Shown in pieces: positions 248 through 23,460 of a DNA stretch of 64,000 bases. Origin of the DNA: Candidatus Latescibacterota bacterium (GTDB lineage Bacteria > Latescibacterota > UBA2968 > GCA-2709665). Within the stretch, counting starts at the first letter, position 1. Each line of letters begins with the position of its first letter. The stretch covers positions 96,001-160,000 of the forward strand of contig OZ242358.1 of assembly GCA_965208835.1 (NCBI GenBank), in the 5' to 3' direction. The notes beneath the pieces are model-generated. The model ran no database searches. It was not told where the DNA came from and saw only the letters and a list, made by a program, of their open reading frames with translations. The position numbers were made by a program, and so were the translations under genes.

Positions 248-1414
248 ATGAAATCCGGGATTTCAGGAACGCGTGAGCCTCACGGGCACACAGTACGATG
301 TCCTGGAGGGTACAGCGCTTTCGTGCCGGCGCCGCTTCCACCGGCAATCACGTGGGGCGGCGATCTGGTCAGTGCGCTCTCCCGCGCCGACCGGGCGATA
401 GGCCGGCTGGCGGGCGAGGGTCGGCAGATACCGAATCCTCATCTGTTCATCAGGTCGTTTCTCCAACGTGAAGCCGTGCTTTCCAGTCGCATCGAAGGCA
501 CCCGGACCACCCTGGGCGAACTGCTTGCCGCACAGGCCGGGGCACAGGTAGAGCAAAGTGCTGCGGACCTGAGTGAGGTCGTCAACTACGTCGCCGCGTT
601 GGAATACGGGATCCAGCGCCTTGAATCGCTCCCGCTTTCATTGCGCCTCGTTCGCGAACTGCACGAACGCCTGATGCGCGGAGTGCGTGGCGGCGTGGCT
701 GTGCCTGGCGAGTTTCGACGGAGCCAGAACTGGATCGGCCCGCCCGGATGTACACTTAACGACGCGACGTTCGTACCGCCGCCACCCGATGAGCTGATGG
801 GCTGTCTGGGCGCATGGGAGCGATTCCTCCACGACGAGACGTTTCCGCCTTTGATTCACGCCGCCCTCACCCACTCCCAGTTCGAATCGATCCATCCCTT
901 CGTGGACGGAAACGGACGCGTCGGTCGGTTGATAATCTCGCTGTTGTTCGTCGCCCGTGGCGTTCTCCCGGCGCCGTTATTGTATTTGAGCGCATACTTT
1001 GAAGCCACTCGCCCTGAGTACTATGCACACCTGCTTGCCGTGACGCAGGACGGCGCGTGGGAGTCGTGGCTGAACTATTTTCTGGGCGGTGTTGCCGAGC
1101 AGGCCGAAGACGCCATCAACAGAATCCGTCAAATCGACGAATTGTTCCACGTCTGGTCCGAACAGCTCGGTAGTACCGGATCGGCGAATCTGGAAAAGGT
1201 TCTGGAGCTATTCGTCGAATTCCCGTTCTGGAACGTGCCGATGCTCTCATCACAGCTGGGGGTCGCCTATACCACGGCTCGACGCGCCGTTGACCGGTTG
1301 GTATCTGCAGGTATTGTCAGCCCGGTTGGCGATGCAAGGCGAAATCGTGTATATTGTGCGGAAGCTGTGCTCGAAGTGCTTGACGCTGAGGTGTCGTCAA
1401 CTCCTGGAACGTGA
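248..1414 (+). CDS. Fic family protein (AMPylase-type) with C-terminal HTH
   Basis: Intact Fic motif HPFVDGNGRVGR; N-terminal SSRIEG inhibitory-type motif; helical C-terminus. Confidence 0.92.
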   Translation: MKSGISGTREPHGHTVRCPGGYSAFVPAPLPPAITWGGDLVSALSRADRAIGRLAGEGRQIPNPHLFIRSFLQREAVLSSRIEGTRTTLGELLAAQAGAQVEQSAADLSEVVNYVAALEYGIQRLESLPLSLRLVRELHERLMRGVRGGVAVPGEFRRSQNWIGPPGCTLNDATFVPPPPDELMGCLGAWERFLHDETFPPLIHAALTHSQFESIHPFVDGNGRVGRLIISLLFVARGVLPAPLLYLSAYFEATRPEYYAHLLAVTQDGAWESWLNYFLGGVAEQAEDAINRIRQIDELFHVWSEQLGSTGSANLEKVLELFVEFPFWNVPMLSSQLGVAYTTARRAVDRLVSAGIVSPVGDARRNRVYCAEAVLEVLDAEVSSTPGT

Positions 1415-7778: not shown

Positions 7779-7813
7779 AAAAAAAGCCCCGGAGATTCAT
7801 TTCTCGGGGTGTT
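7779..7813. terminator. Hairpin between convergent genes; left boundary repeat of the island
   Basis: A-run plus ccccggaga-ttcatt-tctcgggg stem-loop. Confidence 0.6.
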
Positions 7814-8027: not shown

Positions 8028-8792
8028 TTATTCACCAGTATCTTCTAGCCTTTTGTCAAAATGACATCTTAGACCAATAAGGCTGGCAATTGACGCCACC
8101 GATTCTTCATTTGTAACAAACCATTCCCTACGTTTGTTTCTCCCGTTCCGATGGCCGATAGTACGTAGATGTTCCTGAATCTTCCCTTCGATTTCCTTCA
8201 AATCATCATTGGATTCCGTTACCCAAACCTGCAGAATCATTACAGGTTCAGGCATGCCGGTACTTTGTTTAACTGCGCGCTTAAAGGCATCCCTTGTTGA
8301 CATCCCGACTTTCAAATAGGTCCTCGCATCGCAATCTTCGTTCTGTTCAATTACAGGATGGTGCAGATAATGCGGATACGTATACACGTAAATTCCCGGA
8401 ACTAGCATTTTCGAAATATCCGTCGCCTGCTTTTCAACTTCCTCAACTTCCTCATCTATCGCCTGTACATTGGTCGCCCGAGTTTCACACTGCCCTGCCC
8501 TATATTCTAGAACCCTTTGGACTTCCAGAGAAAAATCGTGGCGCTTGACGAAACTTTTCAACGCCCCTGAAGTCTGTTTGGCGAGTGTAGGACTATTGGG
8601 CAGTACTCCTTGTTCTATCGCTCGAATGTAAGTCCTGTAAGTTGATACGAATCCAGATGAAGAGACCCCCAAGGATTCTGCGATTTCTTCAGCAGTCTTG
8701 CCTTGGTCCGTTAATCGCCACACATCGCCGAGCCGTCTGTTATCGTTAGTTAAGGCATTTCTGATTTCGTTCAAGAACGAATTTTCATCCAT
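8028..8792 (-). CDS. HTH + T5orf172/GIY-YIG family nuclease
   Basis: GIYVY...YLKVGMS...R...TGMPEP...E...REWF pattern; N-terminal EEIAESLGVS HTH; ATG 8792 with AAGGAAG upstream. Confidence 0.75.
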   Translation of the reverse strand: MDENSFLNEIRNALTNDNRRLGDVWRLTDQGKTAEEIAESLGVSSSGFVSTYRTYIRAIEQGVLPNSPTLAKQTSGALKSFVKRHDFSLEVQRVLEYRAGQCETRATNVQAIDEEVEEVEKQATDISKMLVPGIYVYTYPHYLHHPVIEQNEDCDARTYLKVGMSTRDAFKRAVKQSTGMPEPVMILQVWVTESNDDLKEIEGKIQEHLRTIGHRNGRNKRREWFVTNEESVASIASLIGLRCHFDKRLEDTGE

Positions 8793-9071
8793 CGTATCTT
8801 CCTTGAATATCTGTAAAATCTCCGTGACTTTCTCCAAGAGAGCGACACTTTGGCAGTAACCCCACCATCAGTTGTCGGAAGATCGGCGGTTAGCCAAGAT
8901 GTGACGTCTGTATGGCGAACGTCCTTACTTCTGAACGAGAAGACGTGTGCCCTCCCTTTGATGTCGGGTCTTGTATTGACCTGTACGAGTGGGTCTATGT
9001 GTCGATACCACGTTTACGGAAATTTGCGGCGCTCGACCTCTTCCATTCTTCCATTGTCGATTCACCCTATG

Positions 9072-11507
9072 TTAAGTCTCCAGCGCCGCAATTAGCTCCT
9101 GTGTGTCGAAGTTCAAGAGAAACTGCGCGTAAAATGTCTGGAAAAGGTCGCCGATGTAATCAGTTATTTCAACATGATGTTGATCTTCCCCATTAGCTTG
9201 CGTTACACCATACTTCCTATTCTTTGTGATCGTGTATAGGAACAGTGTGTGAAAGTACACAGCGGATACGTAACGTTTCTCGGCCACTTCGATAGTTTCC
9301 TCATTTTGCAATTTCGATCTATGCGAAAGCCAAACGCTACTATCCATGTTGATATACAAATCGCTTAGAGATTCCTCCGTGACTAGCGGATAGACAACTA
9401 CGTTGTGATCCATCGAAATCCCATTCTCTTCGAGCTGCTCCCACGTAATGCCATTGTTATGGCTTTCCTTGTAGATCATGTGCAGTTTGGGTAATCCAAG
9501 CCGATTATCCGGCTGTTCTCCCTTGTTTTGTTCTTTTGGCGTTTTAGTCGGCTCTGAAATCTTCACCATAAAAATCTGATCCAATGGACCACCGGGACTA
9601 GAGAGAGATGCGTGAAGCTTCACGGCATCGCCAACCTTAACTTCCATTGTAGGTTTAATGTTCACCTTGATGGTACCATTGTGCGGACTCGACTTTGTGA
9701 CGTTCAGGACTGTATCCACTGCCCCAGGCAGGCCGGGTCTATCGCCTCCCTCCTCGTCGTTGGGCGCTAAACCTAGCAGTCCTATGTGTAGTTCGCCGGG
9801 GTCGTCTACGCGATCAAAGTACTGGTCCTCAACATCGGTCGAAAAGCTTACCGTTCGTGAGCCACCCATTGGCAAACTGACCATTGGAATCTCTTCTAGG
9901 TTACGGGAGTTGACATCAAGACTGAACACGCTTGGATATCTCTGAGGAGAGAATGCGGGGGATTCGTTCGGTTTCTTTTGCCGCATCTTGCGTGCTTTTT
10001 CGTTTCTGCGTCCACTACGTTTGTCATGAAGCTTAAAGGATTGGCCAAGTAGCTCCGCTAACTCATTGCGAATAGGGAGATTTCGAGTAATGTTGCGTAC
10101 TAGATCTTCCGCATCCTTACTCTCGACAGTTATCGACGCTTTACGCCTTTTATGGATATCCTTCAACCGGCCATCCGCCAATAGTTGGGAAAGTCGCTGT
10201 CGGAGCTTTCTCGACTCATCTCCATCCTTCAAACGGTCTCGAGATGCCATGAATAGTTCATTTCGGCATTCTGTGCGGACCTCGGTGCAATCTACGTGAA
10301 CGAGTAGGTAGTCCTTCAGAAGAGGTAATTTGAGTGATCGTGTGATAAATTCCGAGGTATAATGCCCGTGAACCTGTCCGTGCACGGAGAAGAGAATCGA
10401 CATATTGTTCTTGAAAAACTCTCGCCGAATGGTCTCTCTAGTCTCCTTTACTGGCCGGTCGCCAACGCGCGCTTTAAAGACGTAGCATTTTACCCTAATG
10501 CGTCCAATATCCGCGTCCTCTATCTCTTCGGAAAAGCTCTGGTCAACGTATCGACTGTCGTCCTCCTCAAGGCGTCGCTTTAGCCCATAGAGGTGGCGCT
10601 GGAGATTACGGTCTTTGGGATAGCGCTCGGGCTTATCGATTGTAAACACCGGCAGCGCTGGATCGAATAGATACTCATTGATGCTCTGGTTCAGATCACG
10701 TGAAATAACCGAACGCGACCTACCGGGCAGATCGTACGAGTAGAGCTTGATAACAGTGCCCGTGATAAATCGCCGATCATAAAGCCCGAGGTCGAGGCTC
10801 TCGCACGTGAACGAAGGTATCTGATGGTCGACGATGAGGTACTCGTACCAAGTCGCCTTCTTTCTCTTTTCCTCTTCGGCGGTGAGAGGATGTCTACGAA
10901 CCAACGTGAAGCCAAGTGCTCCACGGCATGCGTCGAAACGCTTGGAGGCGATCAGCTGATAGCGTCGCCGACCGCAAAAAGCGACGGCACCGGCGCCGCC
11001 CATATTGTATTTGCCTTGGACAAAGTGAATATCATTCTTGTTGCCGCGCAATAGCGACAGAAACGTGTCCTCGAAATTCTCGGGTGCTTGGCCTTCGCCG
11101 TCATCGTAGATGATCAGCGAAGTTTCTCCCCGAGGTCCATCTGCCAGTATTTGCAATTTCTTCGCTTGCTCACGGCGCGCTTTGGCCAAGTCCCAGTTCT
11201 TGTGATTGGGAAAGAGCTGCCTTAGAGCATCGTCAATCGACCTTGGTGCCCTGTCTGACCGCGGATCGATACCGTGCTCATGGCATGCACGCATTAGGAT
11301 AGCGTCGATACCGTTGGTGATCTTTTCTATCAATGCAGGAATCGGCGAAGCTTGCTGATTTTCCACGACGCCAAAGTTGCTTTCGTTTTGGCCATATGGA
11401 CGCCAATTTACCGGACTATCAAGAAGCGAGTAGCCGTCGAGTGCTTTTTCGACGTCGTTCTCCACCTGTGCCTTGTAGAGTTTCCAAAAAAGGCCTTCAA
11501 GGTCCAT
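9072..11507 (-). CDS. GHKL (Hsp90/MORC-like) ATPase domain protein
   Basis: Motifs EKITNGIDA, DDGEG, GKYNMGG and GTVI; long unassigned C-terminal region. Confidence 0.72.
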   Translation of the reverse strand: MDLEGLFWKLYKAQVENDVEKALDGYSLLDSPVNWRPYGQNESNFGVVENQQASPIPALIEKITNGIDAILMRACHEHGIDPRSDRAPRSIDDALRQLFPNHKNWDLAKARREQAKKLQILADGPRGETSLIIYDDGEGQAPENFEDTFLSLLRGNKNDIHFVQGKYNMGGAGAVAFCGRRRYQLIASKRFDACRGALGFTLVRRHPLTAEEEKRKKATWYEYLIVDHQIPSFTCESLDLGLYDRRFITGTVIKLYSYDLPGRSRSVISRDLNQSINEYLFDPALPVFTIDKPERYPKDRNLQRHLYGLKRRLEEDDSRYVDQSFSEEIEDADIGRIRVKCYVFKARVGDRPVKETRETIRREFFKNNMSILFSVHGQVHGHYTSEFITRSLKLPLLKDYLLVHVDCTEVRTECRNELFMASRDRLKDGDESRKLRQRLSQLLADGRLKDIHKRRKASITVESKDAEDLVRNITRNLPIRNELAELLGQSFKLHDKRSGRRNEKARKMRQKKPNESPAFSPQRYPSVFSLDVNSRNLEEIPMVSLPMGGSRTVSFSTDVEDQYFDRVDDPGELHIGLLGLAPNDEEGGDRPGLPGAVDTVLNVTKSSPHNGTIKVNIKPTMEVKVGDAVKLHASLSSPGGPLDQIFMVKISEPTKTPKEQNKGEQPDNRLGLPKLHMIYKESHNNGITWEQLEENGISMDHNVVVYPLVTEESLSDLYINMDSSVWLSHRSKLQNEETIEVAEKRYVSAVYFHTLFLYTITKNRKYGVTQANGEDQHHVEITDYIGDLFQTFYAQFLLNFDTQELIAALET

Positions 11508-11685
11508 AAAAGTACCTGATTTCGTAGGTGGACAATCTGCTCGTCTGGAATTACAGATCAGAAAAACTCGAGCCGGTAATCTCTAACCGTACCGTCCGGT
11601 GTGAATCAGCGACAGTACGTCGAACCCTTCTCTATCCTGAAACTCTCTTGCAGAACTTGGGCCTCACACCCGTTCGTTTCTCTGT

Positions 11686-12942
11686 TCATACCACCATCTC
11701 AGGCAGTATTAACGACTGATTACCGGTATCTTTGCGATACCGTTCCAAAAGTTCATTTTCGGTGAATTTCGACCTGCCAATCATATTTAGTAGAATTTCC
11801 CTCAATGTGACTTTATTGGAATTCAGGATCGCCCTTCTGCTTGGATCCCACATAAGACCTTTGTAGGGAGCCATGTTCAGGTTCCTTGGTAACTTGGCGG
11901 CCTGACGCACTGCCGCCGCGAAGGCCATGTCGCTTGTTAAGTTCGCTATGATCCTTAGGAAGATTTCCAATCCAATGGGTCGGAATAAAGCGTTGCCGCC
12001 ATGGCTTCCGCGATGTGCGCTCACCACCGATTCCGTATTCTTTGCAGCGAAGAACCCATTCAATTCGTCGAATTCTGTCCTTAGCCGAATAAACAGCTCG
12101 TTCGCATACTCGAAATACTCGTCCAATTTCGTGCGATCAGGACGTTTATTCTGCAGTTTGGACTTCGTGGTTTTCAGGGTCGTTTTAGTATCGGTAAACA
12201 AGATGGTCAAAAGGTCGTACAAGTTGCCGACGGTTGTCAGGCTAGTGGTATTTGAAACTGGCATATTGTTACTTGCCACAAATGCTAACCGGTCTCCACG
12301 AAACAAATCGGTCTCTTCAATCAGCCGACGAACACAGATAGCCATCACATCATCCTCGTCCAACGCAATGATGTCGCCTTTAGATACAGGTTTAGCAGTC
12401 TTGTTTAGGGTCGTAAAGAGCCTTCTTGTCCGCTCGAGGCCATTCTCCACGTTGTGAGCCACGATGATAACAGAAACTACATCGTAAGAGTCGTGCGCCA
12501 GTCCATCTTCGAGGGCTTTCTTGATACCTGCCAGCCGGTGTTGCCCGTCTAGCGCGAAAAGCTTCTCGTCTCCCGTTAGACTCAGAAATCCGACCGAAGC
12601 AACAGTTTCGTCAGCCAAGCCTTGGAGCTGATCGCTTTGCGTCATATTCCGAACATACGATAGTGCGTACCAGTTTGGCTGTCCACCGTATGTCGCAATG
12701 ACAAGAGAATTGAAAAACCGCTCAGGCTGCGTCTTGAGATACTCCGCAATCTGTACACTTCGGCCCCTTTTAAGTTGTCGTTGAATCATCTCGGAAAGCT
12801 TCTTACTCATATGTATGTCTTCTGCATAACGGACTCTTGAACTCAATTCTCTTATGTCCATGAGACAGGAGTAGTATACCCAATCACCCATCACACCTCG
12901 AAGGGCCGGTAGTACAAGCTCCCGCACTTGTCTCGTTGTCAC
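11686..12942 (-). CDS. DGQHR-domain (DndB-like, ParB-superfamily) protein
   Basis: LFALDGQHRLAGI and RRLFTTLNKTAKPV motifs; GTG start overlaps the upstream stop. Confidence 0.88.
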   Translation of the reverse strand: MTTRQVRELVLPALRGVMGDWVYYSCLMDIRELSSRVRYAEDIHMSKKLSEMIQRQLKRGRSVQIAEYLKTQPERFFNSLVIATYGGQPNWYALSYVRNMTQSDQLQGLADETVASVGFLSLTGDEKLFALDGQHRLAGIKKALEDGLAHDSYDVVSVIIVAHNVENGLERTRRLFTTLNKTAKPVSKGDIIALDEDDVMAICVRRLIEETDLFRGDRLAFVASNNMPVSNTTSLTTVGNLYDLLTILFTDTKTTLKTTKSKLQNKRPDRTKLDEYFEYANELFIRLRTEFDELNGFFAAKNTESVVSAHRGSHGGNALFRPIGLEIFLRIIANLTSDMAFAAAVRQAAKLPRNLNMAPYKGLMWDPSRRAILNSNKVTLREILLNMIGRSKFTENELLERYRKDTGNQSLILPEMVV

Positions 12943-13460
12943 GGAAATGCCCTCTTCATGAACCTCACGTCTGCCGCAAGATCACCTACGGAAAACGGCG
13001 GCATCAGTGAATTAATGAGTTGCTTTTCAATCGTTAATAACTGATCTGAGGAAACGCCTTCATCCACGGGAGCGAAGAAAAACCGCAAGACTTCGCTCCA
13101 TGTGCCGATCATAGCGGAAATTCCAGGGCGTCGTCTAATTCTGCTTGGATAGAGGTAGTCCTTGTAACGTTCTCTAAGAGGACGCTGCGAATTCCGCCCT
13201 GCCACTCCTATGTAGAGGATGTACCCGTGCGGCGGCAGCACTCCGCTTAGTTGACAGACTGCAAAGGCATAAACACCTCGTTTGTCGTTAGGGACTTTCT
13301 CTATCTCTGTCGAACCGTAACTGATTGAGTCCCACACTAGGGAACGAGTACCTCGCCCGCTCGCCTTCATTTTCTCAGGAGACAACGTAAACTCAATCTC
13401 GTACTTGCGTAATTCTTGAGTCACCTTGTCGGCGAAATCTTTCAAGGGATCGAGTTTCAA
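12939..13460 (-). CDS. GIY-YIG nuclease family protein
   Basis: GVYAF...LYIG...LRERY...IEKQLI pattern. Confidence 0.75.
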   Translation of the reverse strand: MKLDPLKDFADKVTQELRKYEIEFTLSPEKMKASGRGTRSLVWDSISYGSTEIEKVPNDKRGVYAFAVCQLSGVLPPHGYILYIGVAGRNSQRPLRERYKDYLYPSRIRRRPGISAMIGTWSEVLRFFFAPVDEGVSSDQLLTIEKQLINSLMPPFSVGDLAADVRFMKRAFP

Positions 13461-13479
13461 TCGTTTGTACCCTTGGGAT

Positions 13480-14322
13480 TTACTTGTGACATGCTAGACA
13501 GACCTTCGCTTTGCCGTACAGGTCATCAATATCGATTGGTTCAACATCTGGCCGAAGCGGATTCACCTGACGCTTGTTACGCATTTTTTCGAGACGTCTA
13601 GAATGTTCGGCCTCGATTTGCGCAATGCGCTCGGGTTTCGCGAGATCGTTGAGCGATTCACCCTGGCTCCACGTGAAGGGCGATCCGTGATCGATGGCGT
13701 TCTTTTCGTAGCGCTTGGCTTCCTCAAAGTACTCGGGGTGACGATCCATCAACCGTACCCATTCGATTTTCTGCTGAAAGAAACAGAAGGTGCATCCACT
13801 GCGCGTCCGCCACTCGTAATATCTCGGCAGCCCCAGTCCCGCCCCCTCCAAAATCTCTAACACACCGGATTTGTCAATCCCGTCATCCTTTAGCGGGAGC
13901 TTCACTACAAGATTGTCGCGTTTTGAGGTGTAGCCTTCCCGGTACTCCTCGTCCGCGCGGATGGCCACGTAGCTATATACCGTAACGCCACTATCTAGGA
14001 TTGGACGTATCCACCGCTCGAAAGGCCGCAGCTTGAGTTGCCGCGTGCACCAGCGGCTTTGCGCCGACGGTAGAAAATTGTTGTATTGCTTTAGCCAGAA
14101 GTCGAAATCGCGATCCGGATTCAGCCGCTCGATCGGCTTACCCAAGAATCCTTCTAGTTTTACCAGAAACTCATAAACTTCCGGTAATTCCTTGCCAGTA
14201 TCGGTAAAGAAGTAGCCGATGTCAAGTTCGGGATAGTTTTGACGCATGTATACGGCAAGCGCGGCGCTGTCTCGACCACCCGAGAGCCCCAAAACGTGTT
14301 TTTCGTTTCCGTTGTTATTCAC
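13480..14322 (-). CDS. sspD: PAPS reductase-family protein, SspD-like
   Basis: PP-loop SGGRDS, RWCT, RSGCTFCF and C-terminal CLACHK cysteines; operon context. Confidence 0.82.
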   Translation of the reverse strand: MNNNGNEKHVLGLSGGRDSAALAVYMRQNYPELDIGYFFTDTGKELPEVYEFLVKLEGFLGKPIERLNPDRDFDFWLKQYNNFLPSAQSRWCTRQLKLRPFERWIRPILDSGVTVYSYVAIRADEEYREGYTSKRDNLVVKLPLKDDGIDKSGVLEILEGAGLGLPRYYEWRTRSGCTFCFFQQKIEWVRLMDRHPEYFEEAKRYEKNAIDHGSPFTWSQGESLNDLAKPERIAQIEAEHSRRLEKMRNKRQVNPLRPDVEPIDIDDLYGKAKVCLACHK

Positions 14323-17300
14323 GTGTTGGATCTCCTCTGACTCGACTGCGGCGAATTTCCGGAATCCAGATATCGAGCACTTAACTCGGCTAGGGCGGCG
14401 AGAATTACGTTGTGTCTTTCATGGCCGTTGCCTCTCAATGTTCCGTCTAATCGTTCAATCAACTCTTTTACTGCGGATTGATCCCCGTCGGTAATCTCGA
14501 ACTCGTTATGGACCAGATTTGGCTGCCCTTCCATACCGACAACGACTGCCATTGCGTGCCTCTTGTCCTTCCGGCCCTTGACGCGAGCGAACGCTTCTGC
14601 GCGTATGAACCGCTGGGCTAGAGCGGCAAGCTCGACCGACGCCCGATCGATGTCCGCATCAACCCAATCTCGAGGTGGTTTGTTGACGGCCATGCCTGCC
14701 AAACCCTCCACGTCCTCTTCTGTGCCTTCAAACTGCGCTACGCGAACGACAAAGGCCTCAAGGCGATGATCCCCGCCGAGGTCGCGGATGTTCGCCGAAC
14801 GGTCACGCAACTCTGCCAGCATCGAAGTCGAGTCGTTGGGAACTTGCAACTCCGCAAGCAACATCTCGCGAATCCGATTCAGCATTGTGGGAAATGCTTG
14901 GCATAACTCAGTCAAGCCTATTCGAATTCGGTCAGCAATCTTGTCTGTGGCTATCTCTGTTGGTATAACTGAAGAATCATCTAACACCTGCGGTAAATCG
15001 TCAAAGATCAGTCGATTCGGGTCGTTGGCCTGCTTCAGAAGCTGTCGTATACGCTTGGCGTTAGACGACAGACGCTGCGTCCGACCGACCCAGGGCGGCA
15101 GCTGGTCATAGATCGCCACGAGCCCTCTTGCGACGTCAATCGGTTCCAGGTTCGGCAAGGTGTTCGCTGCATCCAGATCGCGTACGATATCTGCCATATC
15201 TGCAAGCAGCCGACGCGAAACCGCTGACAGATCCATCCATCTCACCTGGATGTCAGCCGGGTTTTTAGCTAATACCTCCGCGTCCAGATCTGTAAAATAG
15301 GCTTGGAATATCCCCTGTCTGTAGAACGCGAGGACGTCGCGTTTTGAAAGTGCGAATGCCAGGGTTAAAATTGGCAGCAATCCGTCCTTTATGCCGAACG
15401 GAGCTTGTCGCCAAAGATCGTAGATCTCCGCAATCGATACTGATCTGTGGGATTCGGCTTCCAGGAACTCTGTCGCAGCCTCCCAAGCAGGGACGAGGTT
15501 GCATGGATCATCGCCATGGTCAGGCGGTGTAAAACGCAACCCATCTGGCGTACTCTGGTACAGTCCGCTTGCATTAAGTAGAGAGGCGAACAAGCCGCCT
15601 TCTGCGGGAAAATCCTCGATACCCAACCGCGGCCTGCCTTCGTATAGCGCCATCCGACGAAGCAAGGAATTTTGCGCAGCGATTGCGTTACTGGAGGGTC
15701 TGATTCGGTTTAATAACTCATTGTTGAGTTTTGGTGCCTTTTTGAATCTTTCGTCTGCGAAATCTGAAACGAGACTGTTTATTTCAGCATGGTCGAGCCG
15801 CTTTGACCGAAGTTCCTTTCCCTGCCATAGGGCATTCTCGAAAGCTCGGTCCAGTTCAACTTCGATTTTGCTTTGCAGGTCCGCGATGCTATCCTCAACT
15901 TCGCGCCGCCCAACACGGTCCCCCCGAAGCTCGGGCGTATTATCCCGGACATGCTCTAGGGCAAGCAACTCTCGCGCAAGAGTCGTAATTGTCCACGTCG
16001 ATCGCCGGGGGACGCCCACGATGACATCGCCGTCCTCTCCTCCCTTAACCGTACGTTCCGCAATTCGTTCGACAGTTTCGGGAGATTCGCCCGGTGTGGG
16101 TAGCGCGAGAAAGAATGATCCCATTGCGCCGTTACTAATATCACGCGTTTCCGCAACGTCCTCTAGGTCACGCAACGGAACGACAGTTGTGTCGAACCAT
16201 CGTATCGCACCGGTTTCGTGGTAATGTCGCTTGGCAATCACGGGCTGAAGCCCGGCGAGATCCGAAAGGCGGATGTGGTCAATCCGGTCTATCTCTCCAA
16301 ACGCATTATCTACGGCCCGCCTGATATCAAAGTCGCTTCCCTCGAAGATGCTGTATCCATTGCTGAATTTTCTGTGGATCACCAGCGAGGAGTCCTTCAG
16401 TTTACTCAGCGCCATCTGAATGGCTGTAGTACGTTGGTCACGAAGGGCTAGAACCAAGAGTTCCAGACTCGGCACGAGACCCGATCGTTCTCGGAACAGA
16501 TCGACCAGGCCGATCGTCTTGAGCAAACGTAACTCAAGTTCATCACCGCCTGACCCGTGACTTCGTTCCAGGGCGTCAATTGCCATCGCCCAGCGGTGAC
16601 CGTCCGAAGAAGCCATAATGGAAGGTTCCAGGTTCGCCCGAAGGTAGTCCCAAAGCAGCTCCGGCATATACAAATCATGCTCAGTGGCGGTTATCAGGAA
16701 GTCCTGAAATCCGAACGGCTCTGTGGAGTTTAAAAAGCCAAAGATGCTACGCTGATTCTGGCCGAAACTCCGCCGTGAGATGGGTCCGAGCAAGCAAGCT
16801 ACGATTGGGTGCAACGGCCAACATCTTTGCAACACTTCAGACGTTTGCGTGTGATGGCCGAGTGCGGCGGCCTTCTTGAACAGTGGCGTATTCTTTTGAG
16901 GCACTTGATCGCTCTCTATCGCCCGTCCCAAGAGCTCTAATTGCTCGTCAGGTCCAACATTAATCGGCAGGTCTATGAATCGACCTTGAACCTTTGCCCA
17001 CTCGTCCCGCACCTCACGTGAGAGCCGGTTTGCATACTCTTCAAACGCCTGGTGCAGAATCCCCACGACAATCAGCCGATTGTTGCTTCGCGAGGCAATT
17101 TCCGCCAATTGTTGGAAAAAGTAGATGTCCGTGTCCTCGTACGCGGCGCCTTCCAGCAACTTCCCCATTTCGTCCAAGAAGACAACAAGCCCGCCAGACG
17201 TGCGGGGATTCCGTCGGGCGACCCTTAACAGGACGTCATAGACGGCCTCGTCGCTCCAGGGGCCAGCTGCGCCATTTCGTATAAAGCGGGCACGCTCAAT

Positions 17301-17693
17301 CGCCTCACCGACCACTTGGGCGGGTCTATCACGCCTCCCCACGACGGGCAGGATCCGCCAACCTTTGGCTTGGGGAGGCAAAGCAGTCCAGATCGCCTCG
17401 GCTGTTTGAAAACCGAGCATCCGGGCAGTCGAGTTTCTGAGCTCGGCGTCACCATTCAGCACCGCGCTCAGTGCAACCACGAGGCTCGACTTCCCAGAAC
17501 CATAGGGTCCCGTCCACGTAAATGCGGCCTGTTCGGTTTTCCGGACGTGCTGTGCCATCGTCTCAAGTACGAGAGCGGAGGACTGGGGACAGATGAAACC
17601 CGTGAGAGCCGCAGGATCGGAAAGGTCAGTGTCGATTCGGATTGACCTTCGGAAGCGGCGGCTAATCTGGACACGATCAGCCAATACTGTCAC
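14319..17693 (-). CDS. sspC: Large P-loop ATPase, SspC-like
   Basis: Walker A GPYGSGKS, Walker B FLDEMGK; 1124 aa; GTGA overlaps with both neighbours. Confidence 0.78.
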   Translation of the reverse strand: MTVLADRVQISRRFRRSIRIDTDLSDPAALTGFICPQSSALVLETMAQHVRKTEQAAFTWTGPYGSGKSSLVVALSAVLNGDAELRNSTARMLGFQTAEAIWTALPPQAKGWRILPVVGRRDRPAQVVGEAIERARFIRNGAAGPWSDEAVYDVLLRVARRNPRTSGGLVVFLDEMGKLLEGAAYEDTDIYFFQQLAEIASRSNNRLIVVGILHQAFEEYANRLSREVRDEWAKVQGRFIDLPINVGPDEQLELLGRAIESDQVPQKNTPLFKKAAALGHHTQTSEVLQRCWPLHPIVACLLGPISRRSFGQNQRSIFGFLNSTEPFGFQDFLITATEHDLYMPELLWDYLRANLEPSIMASSDGHRWAMAIDALERSHGSGGDELELRLLKTIGLVDLFRERSGLVPSLELLVLALRDQRTTAIQMALSKLKDSSLVIHRKFSNGYSIFEGSDFDIRRAVDNAFGEIDRIDHIRLSDLAGLQPVIAKRHYHETGAIRWFDTTVVPLRDLEDVAETRDISNGAMGSFFLALPTPGESPETVERIAERTVKGGEDGDVIVGVPRRSTWTITTLARELLALEHVRDNTPELRGDRVGRREVEDSIADLQSKIEVELDRAFENALWQGKELRSKRLDHAEINSLVSDFADERFKKAPKLNNELLNRIRPSSNAIAAQNSLLRRMALYEGRPRLGIEDFPAEGGLFASLLNASGLYQSTPDGLRFTPPDHGDDPCNLVPAWEAATEFLEAESHRSVSIAEIYDLWRQAPFGIKDGLLPILTLAFALSKRDVLAFYRQGIFQAYFTDLDAEVLAKNPADIQVRWMDLSAVSRRLLADMADIVRDLDAANTLPNLEPIDVARGLVAIYDQLPPWVGRTQRLSSNAKRIRQLLKQANDPNRLIFDDLPQVLDDSSVIPTEIATDKIADRIRIGLTELCQAFPTMLNRIREMLLAELQVPNDSTSMLAELRDRSANIRDLGGDHRLEAFVVRVAQFEGTEEDVEGLAGMAVNKPPRDWVDADIDRASVELAALAQRFIRAEAFARVKGRKDKRHAMAVVVGMEGQPNLVHNEFEITDGDQSAVKELIERLDGTLRGNGHERHNVILAALAELSARYLDSGNSPQSSQRRSNT

Positions 17694-18655
17694 GCAACGT
17701 CCTCCTCGCGACCTGAACCATTATAATTCACCTTCAAGAGATTCAATTTTTCCTCGGTCGTAAGCTCGCGTTCCCTGATGAGCTGCTTCAACCCGGCAGT
17801 CTCTGACCACTGATAGATACCCTCAGTAACGGTCTCGAGCCGTCCTAAGAGGTCGACAAGATCATTTTCAGCCAGAAGAAAGACCCTGCCCGGCGACCCG
17901 GGTTCGTGCGACAGAGCTTCGAAGGACAGGGTGTTAGCGGTCTTTGAAATACCAGACCAAAAGTCGGTCACGGCATAGGCGAATACACCTGCACCAAGCG
18001 ACGGCTTTGGGCCACGCACGAATCTGAAGCCGTCACGTCGGCCAACCTGCTTGATCAGACCAAGTTCCGTAAGGGGCGATTCAAGGGCGTCTTCGTAGCT
18101 CGCCCGCCGCGACACTGGTTGTGCGACGTATGTGCGCACAAAGCAAGACACGTCGCGTCTGATTGTAGCCAGGGACGACCGTGCCCACCCTATTTCCTCG
18201 GTCAGATTTGCTACTCCGCGGGTTAGCTCATCGCGTTCGAACAAGAGGGCTGGGAAGTGATTAAATGCCCAGAACCACGTCGTTTTATCTTTCCGACCAC
18301 AAAGGCGCCAATGGATGAACCACGATGTCGCGGGGTTTTCCATATATTTGTCGAGACTTCTCTCACCGAATATCAAGTCGCCGATTTCTGTACATCGGAT
18401 ACGTCGTTCGCCAGTAACCTCTTCGATGACTCCGGAAGCAATGGCCCAATGGCGCATTGAAGCAACCATGTTCTTGCCGACCCCGAATCGCGCGATTGCA
18501 TCGTCTGCCGTGAATACCGACAGATTGTTCTCGTCTCCTTCGGTCTCCCGAACGGCATCACATGCCTTCTTGAGCCAACCATAACGGAGCGGAAACGTCT
18601 CGTGCCCAGACAGTTGCGGTTGGTAGCCTTCTTCGTATAGAGGACCTCGGCCCAT
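17690..18655 (-). CDS. sspB: DUF4007 family protein, SspB-like
   Basis: SGHETFPLRYGWLKK and FGVGKNMVASMRHW motifs; ATG 18655 with GGAGAG RBS. Confidence 0.82.
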   Translation of the reverse strand: MGRGPLYEEGYQPQLSGHETFPLRYGWLKKACDAVRETEGDENNLSVFTADDAIARFGVGKNMVASMRHWAIASGVIEEVTGERRIRCTEIGDLIFGERSLDKYMENPATSWFIHWRLCGRKDKTTWFWAFNHFPALLFERDELTRGVANLTEEIGWARSSLATIRRDVSCFVRTYVAQPVSRRASYEDALESPLTELGLIKQVGRRDGFRFVRGPKPSLGAGVFAYAVTDFWSGISKTANTLSFEALSHEPGSPGRVFLLAENDLVDLLGRLETVTEGIYQWSETAGLKQLIRERELTTEEKLNLLKVNYNGSGREEDVA

Positions 18656-18683
18656 CGTCTCTCCTACTGGATGGAACGTCCAG

Positions 18684-18717
18684 CTTGACAATAGTCACAA
18701 AACTGAGTATTGTCAAG
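18684..18717. promoter_or_regulatory. Symmetric bidirectional sigma70-type promoter / operator
   Basis: cttgacaata...tattgtcaag inverted repeat gives TTGACA-N17-TATTGT on both strands. Confidence 0.75.
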
Positions 18718-18843
18718 GTTGAACTGGCGGCAGGCTCCAGGAGCAACACGAAACAGAAAACAAATTCGGCAGAAATCGGAATAAGCATTTGTTTTTATTT
18801 GGGAAGACATCTCGATCGGAAAATCCTTTTCGCCGAACTTAAC

Positions 18844-20022
18844 ATGGTCAGACAAGAAACGATCTACGCAGATTATCAAGCCACAACGCCGGTCGATCCC
18901 CGGGTGCTGGAGAAAATGGACCCTCATTGGCGCGAATCGTTCGGCAATCCCCACTCTAGCGACCATGTCGTGGGCTGGAGAGCCAACGAAGCCGTACACG
19001 AGGCGGGCGAGTCGATCGCGGGGCTGATTGGCGCTGACGTCGATGAAGTGGTTTTCACGTCAGGGGCTACAGAGGCGAACAACCTCGCCCTTCAGGGTCT
19101 GGCCCGGCGGGCGCCGGACGGTCGTGATCGCATTCTGGTCAGCGCAATCGAGCACAAGTGTGTTTTGGCGGCGACGAGGGCGTTAGCTCAGAATCAGGGT
19201 ATCGCTGTCGAGGCGATTCCAGTGGACCACGACGGGTTCGTGGATTTCGATGCATTGCAGAAGCTTGTCGACGAACGCGTCCTTATGGCCTCAGTGATGG
19301 CTGTCAACAATGAAGTGGGAACTATTCAGGATATTCCGCAGATTGCCGAAATGCTCGCTTCATACGGGATCCTGTTTCATTGTGACGCGGCTCAGGCGCC
19401 GTGCGCGATGGACGTGAGTGAGCTTGCCGCGCACGCCGACCTGATCAGTCTATCGGCACATAAATTTCACGGCCCACAGGGTATAGGAGCATTGTATATC
19501 CGGCGCGATCTCAAGGACTCTGTCGAGCCGATGATATATGGGGGCGGACAGCAGGAGGGCCTTCGTTCAGGTACGGTCCCAATGCCGCTTTGCGTTGGGA
19601 TGGGAGTCGCTGCGGAGATTGTTGCCAGCGACGAATCGAAGGAGGAGCGCACGAGGGTCGCCGACTTGCGGGATTCATTCATTGGCCTGCTCGAAAAAGG
19701 GGACTTCACCATCACCGTCAACGGACCAGTCGGACAGAGCCGCCATCCTGGCAACGCCAACATCTGTTTTGAAGGTTGCGATGCGCAAGATATCCTTGGC
19801 GTCCTTCAGCCACGACTCGCGGCATCTACCGGCGCGGCATGTACGACTGGCATTCCGGAACCGTCCCACGTGCTCCGCGCGCTCGGGTTGTCGGACGCAC
19901 AGAGCGAGGCCTCGGTCCGCTTCAGCTTTGGCCGATTCACGACTTACGAAGAAATCGAAACCGCGGCTCGGCTGGTAAGCGAGGCTGTTGCGACCGTTTC
20001 CGTCGAAACTACTATATCATAA
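18844..20022 (+). CDS. sspA: Cysteine desulfurase (SspA/DndA/IscS-like)
   Basis: IYADYQATTP, FTSGATEANN, PLP Lys in SAHKF, catalytic Cys in STGAAC; divergent from sspBCD. Confidence 0.88.
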   Translation: MVRQETIYADYQATTPVDPRVLEKMDPHWRESFGNPHSSDHVVGWRANEAVHEAGESIAGLIGADVDEVVFTSGATEANNLALQGLARRAPDGRDRILVSAIEHKCVLAATRALAQNQGIAVEAIPVDHDGFVDFDALQKLVDERVLMASVMAVNNEVGTIQDIPQIAEMLASYGILFHCDAAQAPCAMDVSELAAHADLISLSAHKFHGPQGIGALYIRRDLKDSVEPMIYGGGQQEGLRSGTVPMPLCVGMGVAAEIVASDESKEERTRVADLRDSFIGLLEKGDFTITVNGPVGQSRHPGNANICFEGCDAQDILGVLQPRLAASTGAACTTGIPEPSHVLRALGLSDAQSEASVRFSFGRFTTYEEIETAARLVSEAVATVSVETTIS

Positions 20023-20091
20023 ATAGTATTTATCCACGTTATTTTACTCCGATGCGTAGATCCTGGAACGCCTTGCAGTTTTAGGACTCAC

Positions 20092-20134
20092 GACAAAGAA
20101 CCCCCGGAGATTCTTCTCTCGGGGGTTCTTTGTC
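20092..20134. terminator. Bidirectional intrinsic terminator; right boundary repeat of the island
   Basis: gacaaagaacccccggaga...tctcgggggttctttgtc long stem between convergent genes. Confidence 0.8.
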
Positions 20135-20187
20135 TGGCTCCGACTTTATGTAAAAACCACTCGCTACTTGGTGCGCTGAACCTCAGA

Positions 20188-20445
20188 TCAACTGTGCCGC
20201 TCCTTTAGCGCGTCCAGGTCGTCGTATTCGTTTAGGCCCTCACCTGTCTCTGCTTGCCTCATTGCCTCTATGGTCTCCTTTTTGGGAATCCTCACCGGGA
20301 AGGGCAAGCCTCCGTGCAGGATGACCTGGACATAGAACAGCGTGATCGCATCGGTTGGGGACAATCCGAGCTTCGAAAATATCGCTTCGGCATGGGTTTT
20401 CAATTCAGGTTCAACTCTGGCCCGGATGAATTCCGTCTTGGCCAT
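20188..20445 (-). CDS. RelB/DinJ family antitoxin (no intact toxin adjacent)
   Basis: IRARV...K..AE..F..LGL...AI.LF...GLPF..RIP..ET pattern; GGAGG RBS. Confidence 0.88.
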   Translation of the reverse strand: MAKTEFIRARVEPELKTHAEAIFSKLGLSPTDAITLFYVQVILHGGLPFPVRIPKKETIEAMRQAETGEGLNEYDDLDALKERHS

Positions 20446-20468
20446 GGACACCTCCTTCCTTGTCCAAA

Positions 20469-20488
20469 TGTATCACAACCGGGATACA
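20469..20488. promoter_or_regulatory. Probable antitoxin autoregulatory operator
   Basis: tgtatc-N8-gataca inverted repeat just upstream of the antitoxin. Confidence 0.45.
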
Positions 20489-20581
20489 AATTCAACCGGT
20501 TCCCGTCGGCTGTCCACTAGACCTATTCTATCCACCGCAGTCCCGCACTCAACCGCAGGAGTCTAACTGTAAAGGGAGACT

Positions 20582-21187
20582 ATGGAAGCCTGGGAGAACC
20601 TTCGAAGTGAAGGCAAGTCGTATATTTGGACGGCGTTAAAATTACAAGATTACATGTTTGGGGTGGATCATATCCCACGAGAGGCAATGTTTGGTTTATT
20701 CTCCAAACTAGACAAGAACTTCCCAGAAAAAAAACAATGGTGTTTCTATCGAGGACCACTTGAGTTCCAGCATCTGTGGGAAAACCTTTTCCATGATCAC
20801 ATGGAGACAGGATGTAGTCCTTCAGATATTGTTCTCTTGTCTCTTGGGATTGAGATGTGCCTGAAGAGCATTTTCTTGATGGAAGAGAAGTCCAAGCCTA
20901 AGCCTGATCATGACCTTTACGGGCACTTTGATGTATTGAAAGAAGAAACCAAGGACGTTCTTAGAGAAAAGTACAAGTTTCTTTTCCTAAAATTAAACAA
21001 AGATCTCCGGGAAAATTGGCATCTAGCCGAATCTGACAAGGTAGATGTTATACTCAAAGAACATCGTAATGCCTTCAAAGAATTAAGATATCGCTTTGAG
21101 TGGCCACGAGGGACCGGATACAGCATGAATCCAGTATGCATCAGAATGGCGGCTCTTGCCATCGTAGATTACATAACTAATCCATAA
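20582..21187 (+). CDS. HEPN-like domain protein
   Basis: LGIEMCLKS, HDLYGHF and AFKELRY segments; AT-rich; GGGAG RBS. Confidence 0.55.
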   Translation: MEAWENLRSEGKSYIWTALKLQDYMFGVDHIPREAMFGLFSKLDKNFPEKKQWCFYRGPLEFQHLWENLFHDHMETGCSPSDIVLLSLGIEMCLKSIFLMEEKSKPKPDHDLYGHFDVLKEETKDVLREKYKFLFLKLNKDLRENWHLAESDKVDVILKEHRNAFKELRYRFEWPRGTGYSMNPVCIRMAALAIVDYITNP

Positions 21188-21394
21188 ACTTGGATTTTTC
21201 GTAGAACAGATGATCGTTTTTTGGCACTATACCGTGTAAGCCCCTTTTATTTTAACGCGATGTCTTTTATGAATTTAATGTATCATGTGATGCAACCTGC
21301 GTCGCGTCAGGAGTTGCGACGACGGTCTGCCTGTGCCATCCTTTCATTCTGAGCGAATTCGAAGAATCTCCCGTCCGTTCCGCGCAGGAAGTGT

Positions 21395-22128
21395 ACGTGC
21401 TGCCTCGCAGGAAACGCCACGTGCAAATCGCTTGCGGTTGATCCCATGCTGCAGTAGATCCTTCGTCGGCCTTGGGGGCACCCTTCGACAGGCTCAGGGC
21501 AAGTCCTCTGGATGACAGTTTTGGCGCACGGGGACGGCAACGTGGGCAGACAGGAATGTCCGCCCCACCTTCACACCGGCTTTCTCAGAGTGTGAGCCCG
21601 CGAGTGCCGACACCTTTTTTTTACAGACCTGACTGGCAACACAGCCGCTCCCCTCCCCGTGCCGGGGAGGGGCCGGGGGAGGGGTCTGCGATACAGAGTT
21701 AGCCTGTATCCGCAGTGCATCCCACAACCAGGAGTTATGACCCAGTTACATCCCGCTCGCCACTTGTCCGGGATTCTTTTTTGTTCCGGGCGGAAGATTA
21801 CGGTATATTTATCGTTCTCTGATTCGTCAGCCTGACGGCTTCCTCAGCATGGCTGTGTGAGCGCCCGAGTGGCTGACGCGTTTCCGGGATAACTCTGCGG
21901 TGGAGGCGGACGTGCTGCCTCTCAGGTTACGCCACGTGCAAGTCACACTGGGTCTATCCGATGTTGCAGTAGATCCTTCGTCGGCCTGGGGGCCTCCTCT
22001 GGATGACAGTCTGGGCGTAGGTCGGGGCTCAGTGTTTCGACGATGTTTGTCGCAAAACATGCCATTCTTAACGACGTGGGCAGACAGGAATGTCCGCCCC
22101 ACCTTCACACCGGCTTCCTCAGAGTGTG
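21395..22128. repeat. Two ~200 bp degenerate direct repeats (21395-21594, 21910-22128) built from REP-like hairpins
   Basis: Shared blocks acgtgctgcctc, gcagtagatccttcgtcggcct, cctctggatgacagt, acgtgggcagacaggaatgtccgccccaccttcacaccggc. Confidence 0.85.
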
Positions 22129-22200
22129 GGCGCGCGTGTGACCGATGCGGGGCTGATTGATGACCCTGGAACCCTGGCTATTGGGAGGATTGATTCGAAA

Positions 22201-23460
22201 ATGTCCGATTTGATACCGCTACATGGCGGATTGTCCTCGCCGGTGTGCCGGATGGTTCCGGACGACGAGCGGGACGCTTTTCGCGAGAGTGCATCGAAGC
22301 TGATCCGCGTTCCCGTGAGCGACGCCGATCTGTCCACGGTTTACCGTTTCGGAGACGGCGGGTTGAGTCCGCTCACCGGGCCGATGGACTCGGAGACGTA
22401 TCACAGAGTTCTGGAAGCGTGTGTCATCGACTGCAACGGGAAGCCGTATGCCTGGACCATTCCGCTGGCGCTTCCGGTATCGAGCGACCTGGCAAGTCAA
22501 CTTGAGGTCGGTCAAACCGTTGCCCTGGTGGATCAGGCCGGACAAATCGTGGGCGCCCTGGACATCAGCGACGTCTACCCCTGGGACAAACTGGCGTATC
22601 TCAAGAGCGTCTACCTGACGGAACGGATCGACCATCCCGGCGCGGACATGGTGCTGGAAGGAGATGCCGGCAAGACCCACCTCCTTGGTGGTGAGATCAG
22701 GGTACTGCCGCAACCGAAGCATCCCGCGTTCGGTCGCTACATGCACACACCCGCGGAGGTCCGTCGTCTGCTTTCGGAAACCGGCTGGCGGCGCGTGGTG
22801 GCGTTTCAGACCCGCAATCCGCTGCACCGGGCTCACGAATACGCCCTGGTCCACGGGCTGGAAACGCTGATCCGGCAGGGGATTGACGCGGGCGCCTGTC
22901 TGAACCCTCTGGTGGGAGAGACCAAATCGGACGACGTCAACGCGGAGATCCGCATGCGCACATACGAGGCGCTGATCGAGTCCCGGGGGCTGGGTGACGG
23001 AGACAGCGATGCGGAATTGTGGGAACCCAGAGGGGAGGCCGTGCCGGATCGGGTGACTCTCATCGGCCTGGATATCAAGATGTTCTACGCCGGCCCCAAA
23101 GAGGCCGTCATGCACGCGATATACCGCCAGAACTTCGGCTTTACCGATATTGTCATCGGGCGCAAGCACGCGGATGCGCCCTACCACGACGGCAGCCCGA
23201 TCTGGGGAGATTTCGACGCACAGGAGGTGTTCAACCAGCTCAATGGGAACCTCGAGATCCGGCCCCTTAACGTGGGTTTCGCAGCGTTCTACGAGTCCCT
23301 CGGGCGGGTGGACCTGATGGAGAACCATCCGGACGAGCAGCCCGTTTTCATCTCCGGTAAACAGGTGCGTGAGATGCTGCTGAAGGGGGAGGCGGTGGAT
23401 CCGCGGATCATGCGGCCCGGAACCTCACGGATTCTGAGTGAAGCGATGGCGGGACGGTAA
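22201..23460 (+). CDS. sat: Sulfate adenylyltransferase (ATP sulfurylase)
   Basis: LIPLHGG N-terminus, [32 protein letters not shown]. Confidence 0.92.

Follow-up and report, generated by a model that had tools for sequence, protein, structure and literature searches.

The window analysed here is a stretch of 64,000 nucleotides from contig OZ242358.1 of a Candidatus Latescibacterota bacterium (assembly GCA_965208835.1, positions 96,001 to 160,000, forward strand). It carries an SspABCD-type DNA phosphorothioation (PT) module followed directly by two genes, which encode a small GIY-YIG-fold protein and a DndB-like DGQHR protein. Genomic comparison revealed that this pair recurs in many phyla, that it forms an evolutionary unit partly uncoupled from the modification genes, and that it is an optional add-on to PT systems and not a self-sufficient new system. 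The best reading of the pair is a split, SspE-like module, with a PT-coupled sensor and a nuclease encoded by separate genes; we put the chance that this is correct at about even.

The modification core consists of four clustered genes. On the minus strand, sspB (DUF4007, 333 aa; 17690–18691), sspC (a large P-loop ATPase, 1124 aa; 14319–17693) and sspD (a PP-loop, PAPS-reductase-like sulfur-transfer enzyme, 280 aa; 13480–14322) lie head to tail, and sspA (a cysteine desulfurase, 445 aa; 18685–20022, plus strand) is divergent from sspB. All four products matched the corresponding PADLOC models (SspA, 1e-129; SspB, 1.3e-103; SspC, E=0 with 1245.8 bits; SspD, 4.5e-136), and Pfam gave Aminotran_5 for SspA (1.7e-77), DUF4007 for SspB (1.8e-86) and PAPS_reduct for SspD (1.8e-06). 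GTGA start/stop overlaps, read directly in the sequence, join sspB to sspC and sspC to sspD; a gap of 19 nt then leads to the 173-aa GIY-YIG gene, which is joined to the DGQHR gene by another GTGA overlap. A preliminary description of positions 11686–20022 had given this gene order, the overlaps and the gap, and had recognised the core as SspABCD; the coordinates of the open reading frames (ORFs), the sequence itself and the PADLOC and Pfam matches agree with it on each of these points. The coordinates of sspA are those of the longest ORF; since the family match begins only at residue 61, the actual start codon probably lies about 165 nt inside it. The likely start of sspB is the ATG at 18655, which is preceded by a GGAG ribosome-binding site.

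The 173-aa protein (12939–13460, minus strand) is presumed to be the nuclease subunit on the basis of its fold and conserved residues. No Pfam, PADLOC, NCBIfam or PHROGs model matched it, and its family profile found no entry in the Protein Data Bank (PDB). In the AlphaFold2 (AF2) model, residues 41–150 form a core with a predicted local distance difference test score (pLDDT) of 70–95. The best VIA-align match was the GIY-YIG domain of UvrC (Z 8.7, root-mean-square deviation 2.4 over 83 of 89 residues, 24% identity), followed by T4 EndoII (8.4), I-TevI (7.3), PD-T4-3 (6.9), R.Eco29kI (6.0) and Hpy188I (5.1), and the first unrelated row scored 4.2. The top seven matches were all GIY-YIG-fold domains, six of them nucleases, and Foldseek returned 1ycz with a probability of 1.00. 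Because the model core matches GIY-YIG nucleases and nothing else well, the GIY-YIG assignment, originally made by motif alone, was right. Seven residues (G62, Y64, Y83, G85, R98, Y102 and E145) are invariant across 29 aligned homologues. Judged by order and spacing, Y64, Y83, R98, Y102 and E145 would correspond to the catalytic residues of UvrC, which we take, partly from the titles of mutant structures, to be Y19, Y29, R39, Y43 and E76. From their sequences, the active sites of both the GIY-YIG and the DGQHR protein look intact.

The 418-aa DGQHR protein (11686–12942, minus strand), the presumed NTPase or sensor subunit, is encoded by the last of five same-strand genes running from sspB, and not at the head of a dndBCDE operon. 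It matched PF14072 (DndB) at 1.6e-25 (90.3 bits against a cut-off of 29.1) and the DGQHR domain model TIGR03187 at 113.1 bits against a cut-off of 58.85, but its score with the DndB equivalog model TIGR03233 was 57.2 bits, far below the cut-off of 328. Among 28 family sequences, D132, G133, H135, R136, the acidic run L194–D198 (LDEDD) and a stretch of the RTRRLFTTLNK type are invariant or nearly so. The AF2 model (pLDDT 80.7) has an N-terminal ParB/Srx-type domain (model residues 14–200) with middling matches to sulfiredoxin (Z 6.1), KorB (5.2), PadC (5.0), ParB-N (4.1) and BrxU (3.9), and a helical C-terminal half with no clear structural match. Models of SspE, GmrSD_N and GmrSD_C gave no match to either protein of the pair at E≤0.01, while the PADLOC SspE models reached 2e-297 on a true SspE in another locus (L131). 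Together with the PADLOC, Pfam and TIGR03233 results, this shows that the pair is not orthologous to SspE, SspFGH, Pbe or true DndB.

The recurrence of the pair was examined in 74 loci encoding a DGQHR relative, drawn from GTDB with one genome per species and fetched as about 20 kb each. More than 3500 homologues were found for the DGQHR protein and 277 for the 173-aa protein, many of the latter on contigs equal in size to DGQHR-bearing ones; a profile search with the 173-aa family gave 722 clusters at 50% identity, of which the best 150 measure 91–272 aa. The small partner lies directly upstream of the DGQHR gene in 67 of the 74 loci, and within about 10 kb there are SspD and SspC genes in 43 loci, SspD only (on short contigs) in 3, DndC in 8, PDC-M33, a candidate system of PADLOC, in 7, and none of these in 13. 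The synteny of sspBCD with the two genes, which the preliminary description had from a single genome, is therefore a recurrent arrangement. PDC-M33 comprises a GHKL/sacsin-like protein (A), a protein of about 286 aa (B) and a DUF6339 domain fused to an SspD-like PP-loop domain (C), and may be a third PT-type modification machinery, which might correspond to the recently named Tdp system; it accompanies the pair in L031 (5014–9348), L034, L037, L040, L047 and L044/L045 (11214–16011). Searches of solved structures by sequence found no match for two PDC-M33 proteins, for either protein of the pair or for the 811-aa protein described below. Some of the 13 remaining loci have PT genes further away: SspA and SspB lie about 9 kb downstream in L035, and SspD lies about 17 kb distant in the genome of L043. 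DndC is about 14 kb from the pair in L056, about 1.8 Mb away in the genome of L018 and about 0.4 Mb away in that of L021. All five of the genomes checked that have no SspD or SspC at the locus nevertheless hold a PP-loop system, four with DndC above the cut-off (two near the pair and two elsewhere) and one with an adjoining M33C gene.

A quick maximum-likelihood tree of the DGQHR proteins was built from 70 loci, the window and a DndB outgroup, four loci (L047, L069, L071 and L075) having been dropped by a length and stop filter. A single large clade (57 rows, support 98) holds the Ssp-linked proteins, with two M33-linked groups nested inside it, and the Dnd-linked proteins form a clade of their own (support 99). 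Context labels cluster on this tree: for Ssp, Dnd and M33 alike, none of 500 shuffles gave so low a value. A branch of about 10 changes per column separates the DGQHR proteins of the pair from the outgroup, which is one true DndB. L063 has a true DndB of its own (PF14072, 3.7e-130) in a DndB-DndC-DndD set, and the pair lies beside this set, upstream of that DndB; the DGQHR protein is therefore not simply DndB. Pairwise distances of the two pair proteins are correlated at 0.74, compared with 0.87–0.96 within SspBCD and only 0.36–0.58 between pair and core. The pair is thus a separate, co-evolving unit, partly uncoupled from SspBCD.

Comparison with sister genomes showed how the pair is placed relative to the core. 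Among 168 genomes of the window's phylum, 43 hold SspD (E≤1e-40), which is an unusually high frequency for Ssp; 19 hold a DGQHR homologue (E≤1e-30), and both occur in 13. One genome of the same genus (L160) has SspB, SspC and SspD 92, 93 and 93% identical to those of the window, and there sspD is followed by a helicase-GHKL-PLD module with no pair. In a second (L161; SspD 94%, SspB 67%, SspC 60%), sspD is followed by an 811-aa gene (89% identical), again without the pair. A third (L162; SspD 93%) has a divergent pair and then the 811-aa family; its DGQHR protein is 39% identical, and its small partner was confirmed by hhalign (probability 99.2). In a genome of the same class (L164; SspD 84%), SspFGH follows sspD. 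Since SspBCD proteins 92–93% identical to those of the window occur without it in the same genus, the pair appears to be optional, inserted where the conserved core meets the variable module, and the core would not need it for modification. The contrast between SspD and SspB/SspC in L161 points to recombination within the Ssp core, by which the subunits likely to set specificity are exchanged.

The slot after sspD was also examined in a metagenome set of 79 loci (L076–L154) fetched through the 811-aa family; labels were assigned by Pfam and PADLOC scans of representative loci and extended to the others by tblastn. In 25 of the 48 loci that hold both SspD and the 811-aa family, this slot carries a gene of the ParB superfamily. 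True SspE accounts for one of these (L131, PADLOC 2e-297) and DGQHR genes for 8. A further 12 have a DUF262-only gene, accompanied by a Ser/Thr kinase (10 loci) or SIR2 (2 loci), and in the last 4 a ParB_N gene is joined by two small ones. The remaining slots hold a double-HATPase protein or unknown genes, or are empty. A ParB-type module with interchangeable partners at the place of SspE fits a sensor-plus-effector design. Cassettes between SspD and the 811-aa homologue were seen to interchange (L100, L137, L119, L108, L098, L117, L143 and L096); their kinds include DUF262-only with a Ser/Thr kinase, DUF262-only with SIR2, ParB_N with a 233-aa protein and DUF6602, and a nucleoside-deoxyribosyltransferase-like gene. 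The swapping of these cassettes suggests that some are PT-linked abortive-infection arms.

Directly downstream of the DGQHR gene in the window, on the same strand, is a gene for an 811-aa protein (9072–11507, minus strand), which looks like a GHKL-type ATPase and is a candidate second effector or partner. It matched Pfam HATPase_c_3 at 17.9 bits, under the cut-off of 25; its Atlas neighbours score 0.99–1.00, and HATPase_c_3 is found on 26–30% of members in two of the five cluster sets listed. Motifs resembling the N box and G box, as we take these to be defined, were seen by eye. The family has at least 2588 homologues, 60–90% identical among the best 120, with no functional name, those named at all being called hypothetical protein. 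The 811-aa gene is a near-obligate neighbour of Ssp in its own right: of the metagenome loci, the 22 flanked by 6 kb or more on each side all have SspD and SspC within 10 kb, and where such a flank on a single side suffices, 41 of 44 have SspD. A DGQHR gene is present in only 9 of the 79 loci. The frame of the preliminary description ended too early, as both this gene and a further same-strand gene (8028–8837) share the low-GC island described below, and its implicit premise that there is no other effector candidate is not supported.

Similar modules lie beyond the pair elsewhere. Of the 41 genome loci with both Ssp and the pair, 37 hold a further restriction-type module: an SF2 helicase with a GHKL (MzaB-like) protein and PLD in 14, PbeA with PbeC in 12, PbeA alone in 1, genuine SspFGH in 6 and the 811-aa family in 4. 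No module was found in the other 4, one of which (L016) ends just past the pair. In the two SspFGH loci that were scanned (L009 and L024), PADLOC gave 1e-225 to 1e-254 for SspF, 5e-198 to 4e-226 for SspG and E=0 for SspH.

These data suggest the following mechanism. From family membership, SspA would supply sulfur, and SspB, SspC and SspD would place single-strand PT marks on the host DNA. The GIY-YIG and DGQHR genes would constitute a translationally coupled, optional two-gene module able to join Ssp, Dnd and PDC-M33 machineries. The ParB/Srx-fold DGQHR subunit may bind DNA and nucleotide and read the PT state, and, presumably in a complex with it, the GIY-YIG subunit would then be licensed to nick or cut invading DNA. 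In the window the pair would act in phage defence as an extra layer beside a second restriction-type partner, here the putative 811-aa GHKL ATPase. We favour this split SspE-like arrangement because the slot after sspD is equivalent to that occupied by SspE and other ParB-type genes, because SspE itself couples a PT-stimulated GTPase to the licensing of its HNH nuclease (PMC13251355; for this and the other papers cited, statements refer to the accessible portions of the source), and because the catalytic residues of both proteins look intact.

Several observations weigh against it. The DGQHR model resembles the SspE structure 6jiv only weakly (Z 3.6). Among characterised families DndB is the closest, and it regulates transcription of dnd genes (PMC4507180). 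Median identity to the window's protein is higher for DGQHR (62%) than for SspB (56%) and SspC (54%), SspD being at 78%, and such high conservation is unlike that expected of an arms-race effector. No fusion of GIY-YIG and DGQHR was found among the best 150 of the 722 clusters. Because 37 of the 41 Ssp loci with the pair hold another restriction-type module, the pair is never clearly the sole effector, and its placement beside the core also resembles that of DndB. The earlier proposal of a split analogue of SspE fits the contents of the slot, which elsewhere holds SspE or other ParB-superfamily genes with a different partner, but the pair is not the only candidate effector.

Much of this would be expected if the DGQHR protein were a DndB-like governor that limits or tunes PT, either as an NTP-dependent repressor of ssp or through the modification machinery, with the GIY-YIG protein assisting it and restriction left to the variable downstream module, here the putative GHKL ATPase. 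Such a role would suit the match to PF14072 DndB, the sole family found for the DGQHR protein in the Pfam and PADLOC scans, the position of the pair directly after sspD with a restriction-type module beyond, and also its optional nature, given that DndB is present in 51% of Dnd taxa in the available part of PMC10853773. It leaves unexplained, however, why the DGQHR protein has a constant partner with invariant GIY-YIG catalytic residues, why L063 has a true DndB as well as the pair, and why, in the genomes of L018 and L021 at least, a great distance separates the pair from the PT genes. The partial uncoupling of the pair from SspBCD in evolution also argues against a governor, as does a palindrome upstream of sspB that tracks the Ssp clade and not the DGQHR gene. 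The alternative of a DndB-type repressor, already raised in the preliminary description, keeps its PF14072 membership and its site beside the core, but is weakened by the GIY-YIG partner, the true DndB of L063 and the lack of linkage between palindrome and pair; we consider a governor possible but rather doubtful.

Two further explanations are much less probable. The pair might be a required helper of modification, with the DGQHR ATPase and a GIY-YIG nickase joining in sulfur insertion, much as DpdB supports DpdA. Its tight placement after sspD (the 19-nt gap here, and a median of about 50 nt between the hits across 38 colinear loci) and its association with three different PP-loop systems would accord with this role, which is nevertheless very improbable: the SspBCD set of L160 (92–93% identical) and the SspD of L161 (94%) occur without the pair, a DGQHR homologue is present in only 13 of the 43 SspD-bearing genomes of the phylum, and the characterised Ssp systems modify DNA by SspABCD alone (PMC8092258, accessible portion). 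The pair could also be an independent defence or toxin module that hitch-hikes in defence islands with no functional link to PT. At 13 of the 74 loci the roughly 20 kb fetched contain no PT gene, some copies lie by integrases, transposases or other defence genes, and the evolution of the pair is partly independent of SspBCD. We nevertheless think hitch-hiking highly unlikely, as Ssp, Dnd or M33 genes lie within about 10 kb at 61 of the 74 loci, context labels cluster on the DGQHR tree, all five checked genomes without SspD and SspC at the locus hold a PP-loop system, and a set of 2.9 million viral contigs yielded only five distant relatives. A phage origin of the pair was likewise rejected, these five matches being the only ones and PHROGs giving nothing useful.

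Beyond the split SspE-like reading, we tentatively raise a more general idea, which is less likely to be true than not to be. ParB-superfamily proteins (DUF262, ParB_N and DGQHR) may be general sensors of backbone sulfur marks, fused to or split from interchangeable effectors: HNH in SspE, GIY-YIG in the pair, and SIR2 or a Ser/Thr kinase elsewhere. The pair would be a portable version that recognises the PT linkage or a shared PP-loop enzyme, and this would explain why it joins Ssp, Dnd and the uncharacterised PDC-M33 alike. If so, Ssp immunity would have arms of the abortive-infection type besides nucleases.

Among the closest known systems is SspE: it partners SspBCD as the pair does, takes up the slot that follows sspD (as in L131), and unites an NTPase-type domain of the ParB superfamily with a DNA nuclease, a combination predicted for the pair. 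SspE, however, is one protein of 700–800 aa with DUF262 (GmrSD_N) and a DUF1524 (GmrSD_C) HNH domain, whereas the pair consists of two genes, of the DGQHR/DndB and GIY-YIG kinds, and also accompanies Dnd and PDC-M33 systems. DndB shares with the pair's protein the DGQHR domain, PF14072, an optional occurrence and a position adjoining PT modification genes; it differs in standing at the head of its operon, whereas the DGQHR gene of the pair stands at the end of its own with a GIY-YIG partner (67 of 74 loci). SspFGH, a restriction-type partner of SspBCD that follows the pair directly at 6 of 41 loci, has no sequence relation to the pair; SspF has a Walker A motif and SspH an FtsK-like end (PMC8092258, in its accessible text). 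Its PADLOC models matched L009 and L024 (E 4.7e-198 down to 0) and nothing in the window. PbeABCD has no homologue in the window, although PbeA and PbeC lie downstream of the pair in other loci. Type IV enzymes of the GmrSD/BrxU kind likewise join a ParB-like NTPase to a nuclease and act on DNA in a modification-dependent manner, but carry DUF262 and HNH in a single chain and have no tie to PT genes.

According to the accessible part of PMC10853773, URI (GIY-YIG) nucleases occur at the borders of Dnd neighbourhoods and have been proposed to have back-up or suicide roles, and alternative roles of DndB are noted; that part centres on DndD/DndE systems and contains neither this small family nor its pairing with DGQHR nor an Ssp linkage. 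In the SspFGH study, 2,211 of 2,678 sspBCD clusters (83.9% in the paper) had neither SspE nor SspFGH, and Wang et al. asked about other restriction partners (PMC8092258, portion available). Neither the pair nor the 811-aa family is described in the accessible portions of the papers on SspFGH (PMC8092258), Dnd (PMC10853773), BREX type 4 (PMC12914056), SspE (PMC13251355) and DndB (PMC4507180), or in that of a bioRxiv survey. The literature search as a whole found no account of either; subscription papers and supplements (Table S2 of PMC8092258 and Data S1 of PMC10853773), which may list such neighbours, were outside its scope.

The island thus places two widespread, unnamed candidate Ssp partners side by side, and together with its sister genomes it presents Ssp as a conserved core to which are added a ParB-type cassette, which is optional, and a restriction-type module, which varies. 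Should the pair sense PT, the principle of SspE would extend to another sensor domain and another nuclease, and one portable module would link the Ssp, Dnd and PDC-M33 machineries. The pair also offers a handle on the unsettled role of DndB-like proteins as regulator, NTPase or effector.

The palindrome mentioned above is 17 nt long, of the type CTGGAYG-N3-CRTCCAG (18667–18683, minus strand), and is located just ahead of the ribosome-binding site of sspB; both of its strands contain CCA. Of 50 loci that hold the pair (DGQHR gene), 29 have it, as against 3 of 33 loci that lack the pair. Within one Ssp clade it is conserved across phyla. A role as operator of the DGQHR protein was ruled out, because the three pair-less loci that have it are those of the closest Ssp clade and it is missing from the pair-bearing loci of a second Ssp subclade. 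The divergent sspA–sspB region also has a perfect inverted repeat of 9 nt (spacer 14 nt; 18685–18716), which coincides with promoter-like hexamers on both strands and is shared with L002.

The Ssp genes and the pair lie in a low-GC stretch at about 8–21 kb of the window, with a GC content of 46–57% (59% over sspA) as compared with 58–66% in the adjacent flanks. On the minus strand, six genes from sspB to the 811-aa gene run head to tail and are followed across a gap by a 269-aa gene. Two copies of a hairpin-forming 30-nt direct repeat (family D3; unstranded), 87% identical and 12315 nt apart, bracket this region on the left (7780–7809) and the right (20095–20124), enclosing precisely the eight genes. 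From the low GC content and the bracketing repeat, these eight genes would be one horizontally acquired island of 12.3 kb; the repeat may be an insertion-site duplication or a duplicated terminator. The final gene of the island (8028–8837, minus strand) encodes the 269-aa protein, which has a C-terminal T5orf172 domain of the GIY-YIG superfamily (PF10544, 2.2e-07). It was rejected as a conserved partner of the system, as tblastn found no homologue in the 74 genome loci and 79 metagenome loci (153).

Scans of ten ORFs (8028–23460) with PADLOC gave no match to models of SspE, SspFGH, Pbe, DndC/D/E or Brx effectors. Genome-wide, the SspE model scored no higher than 43.9 bits, and this on generic DUF262 genes; it gave matches in 5 of 14 control genomes too. 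DndC was not found in the genome and no dnd genes are present at the island; PglZ and BrxL were not included in the genome-wide search.

The island is flanked by a PD40-repeat gene on one side and a gene for a RelB-family antitoxin (20188–20451, minus strand) on the other; just beyond is also a 201-aa ORF with no family assigned (20582–21187, plus strand). A Fic/DOC gene (248–1414, plus strand) is located at the start of the window. Three repeat families of 104, 67 and 23 nt (79–94% identical, spacing about 490–535 nt) occupy positions 21379–22140, upstream of the ATP-sulfurylase gene (22090–23460), and resemble a duplicated segment of about 0.5 kb.

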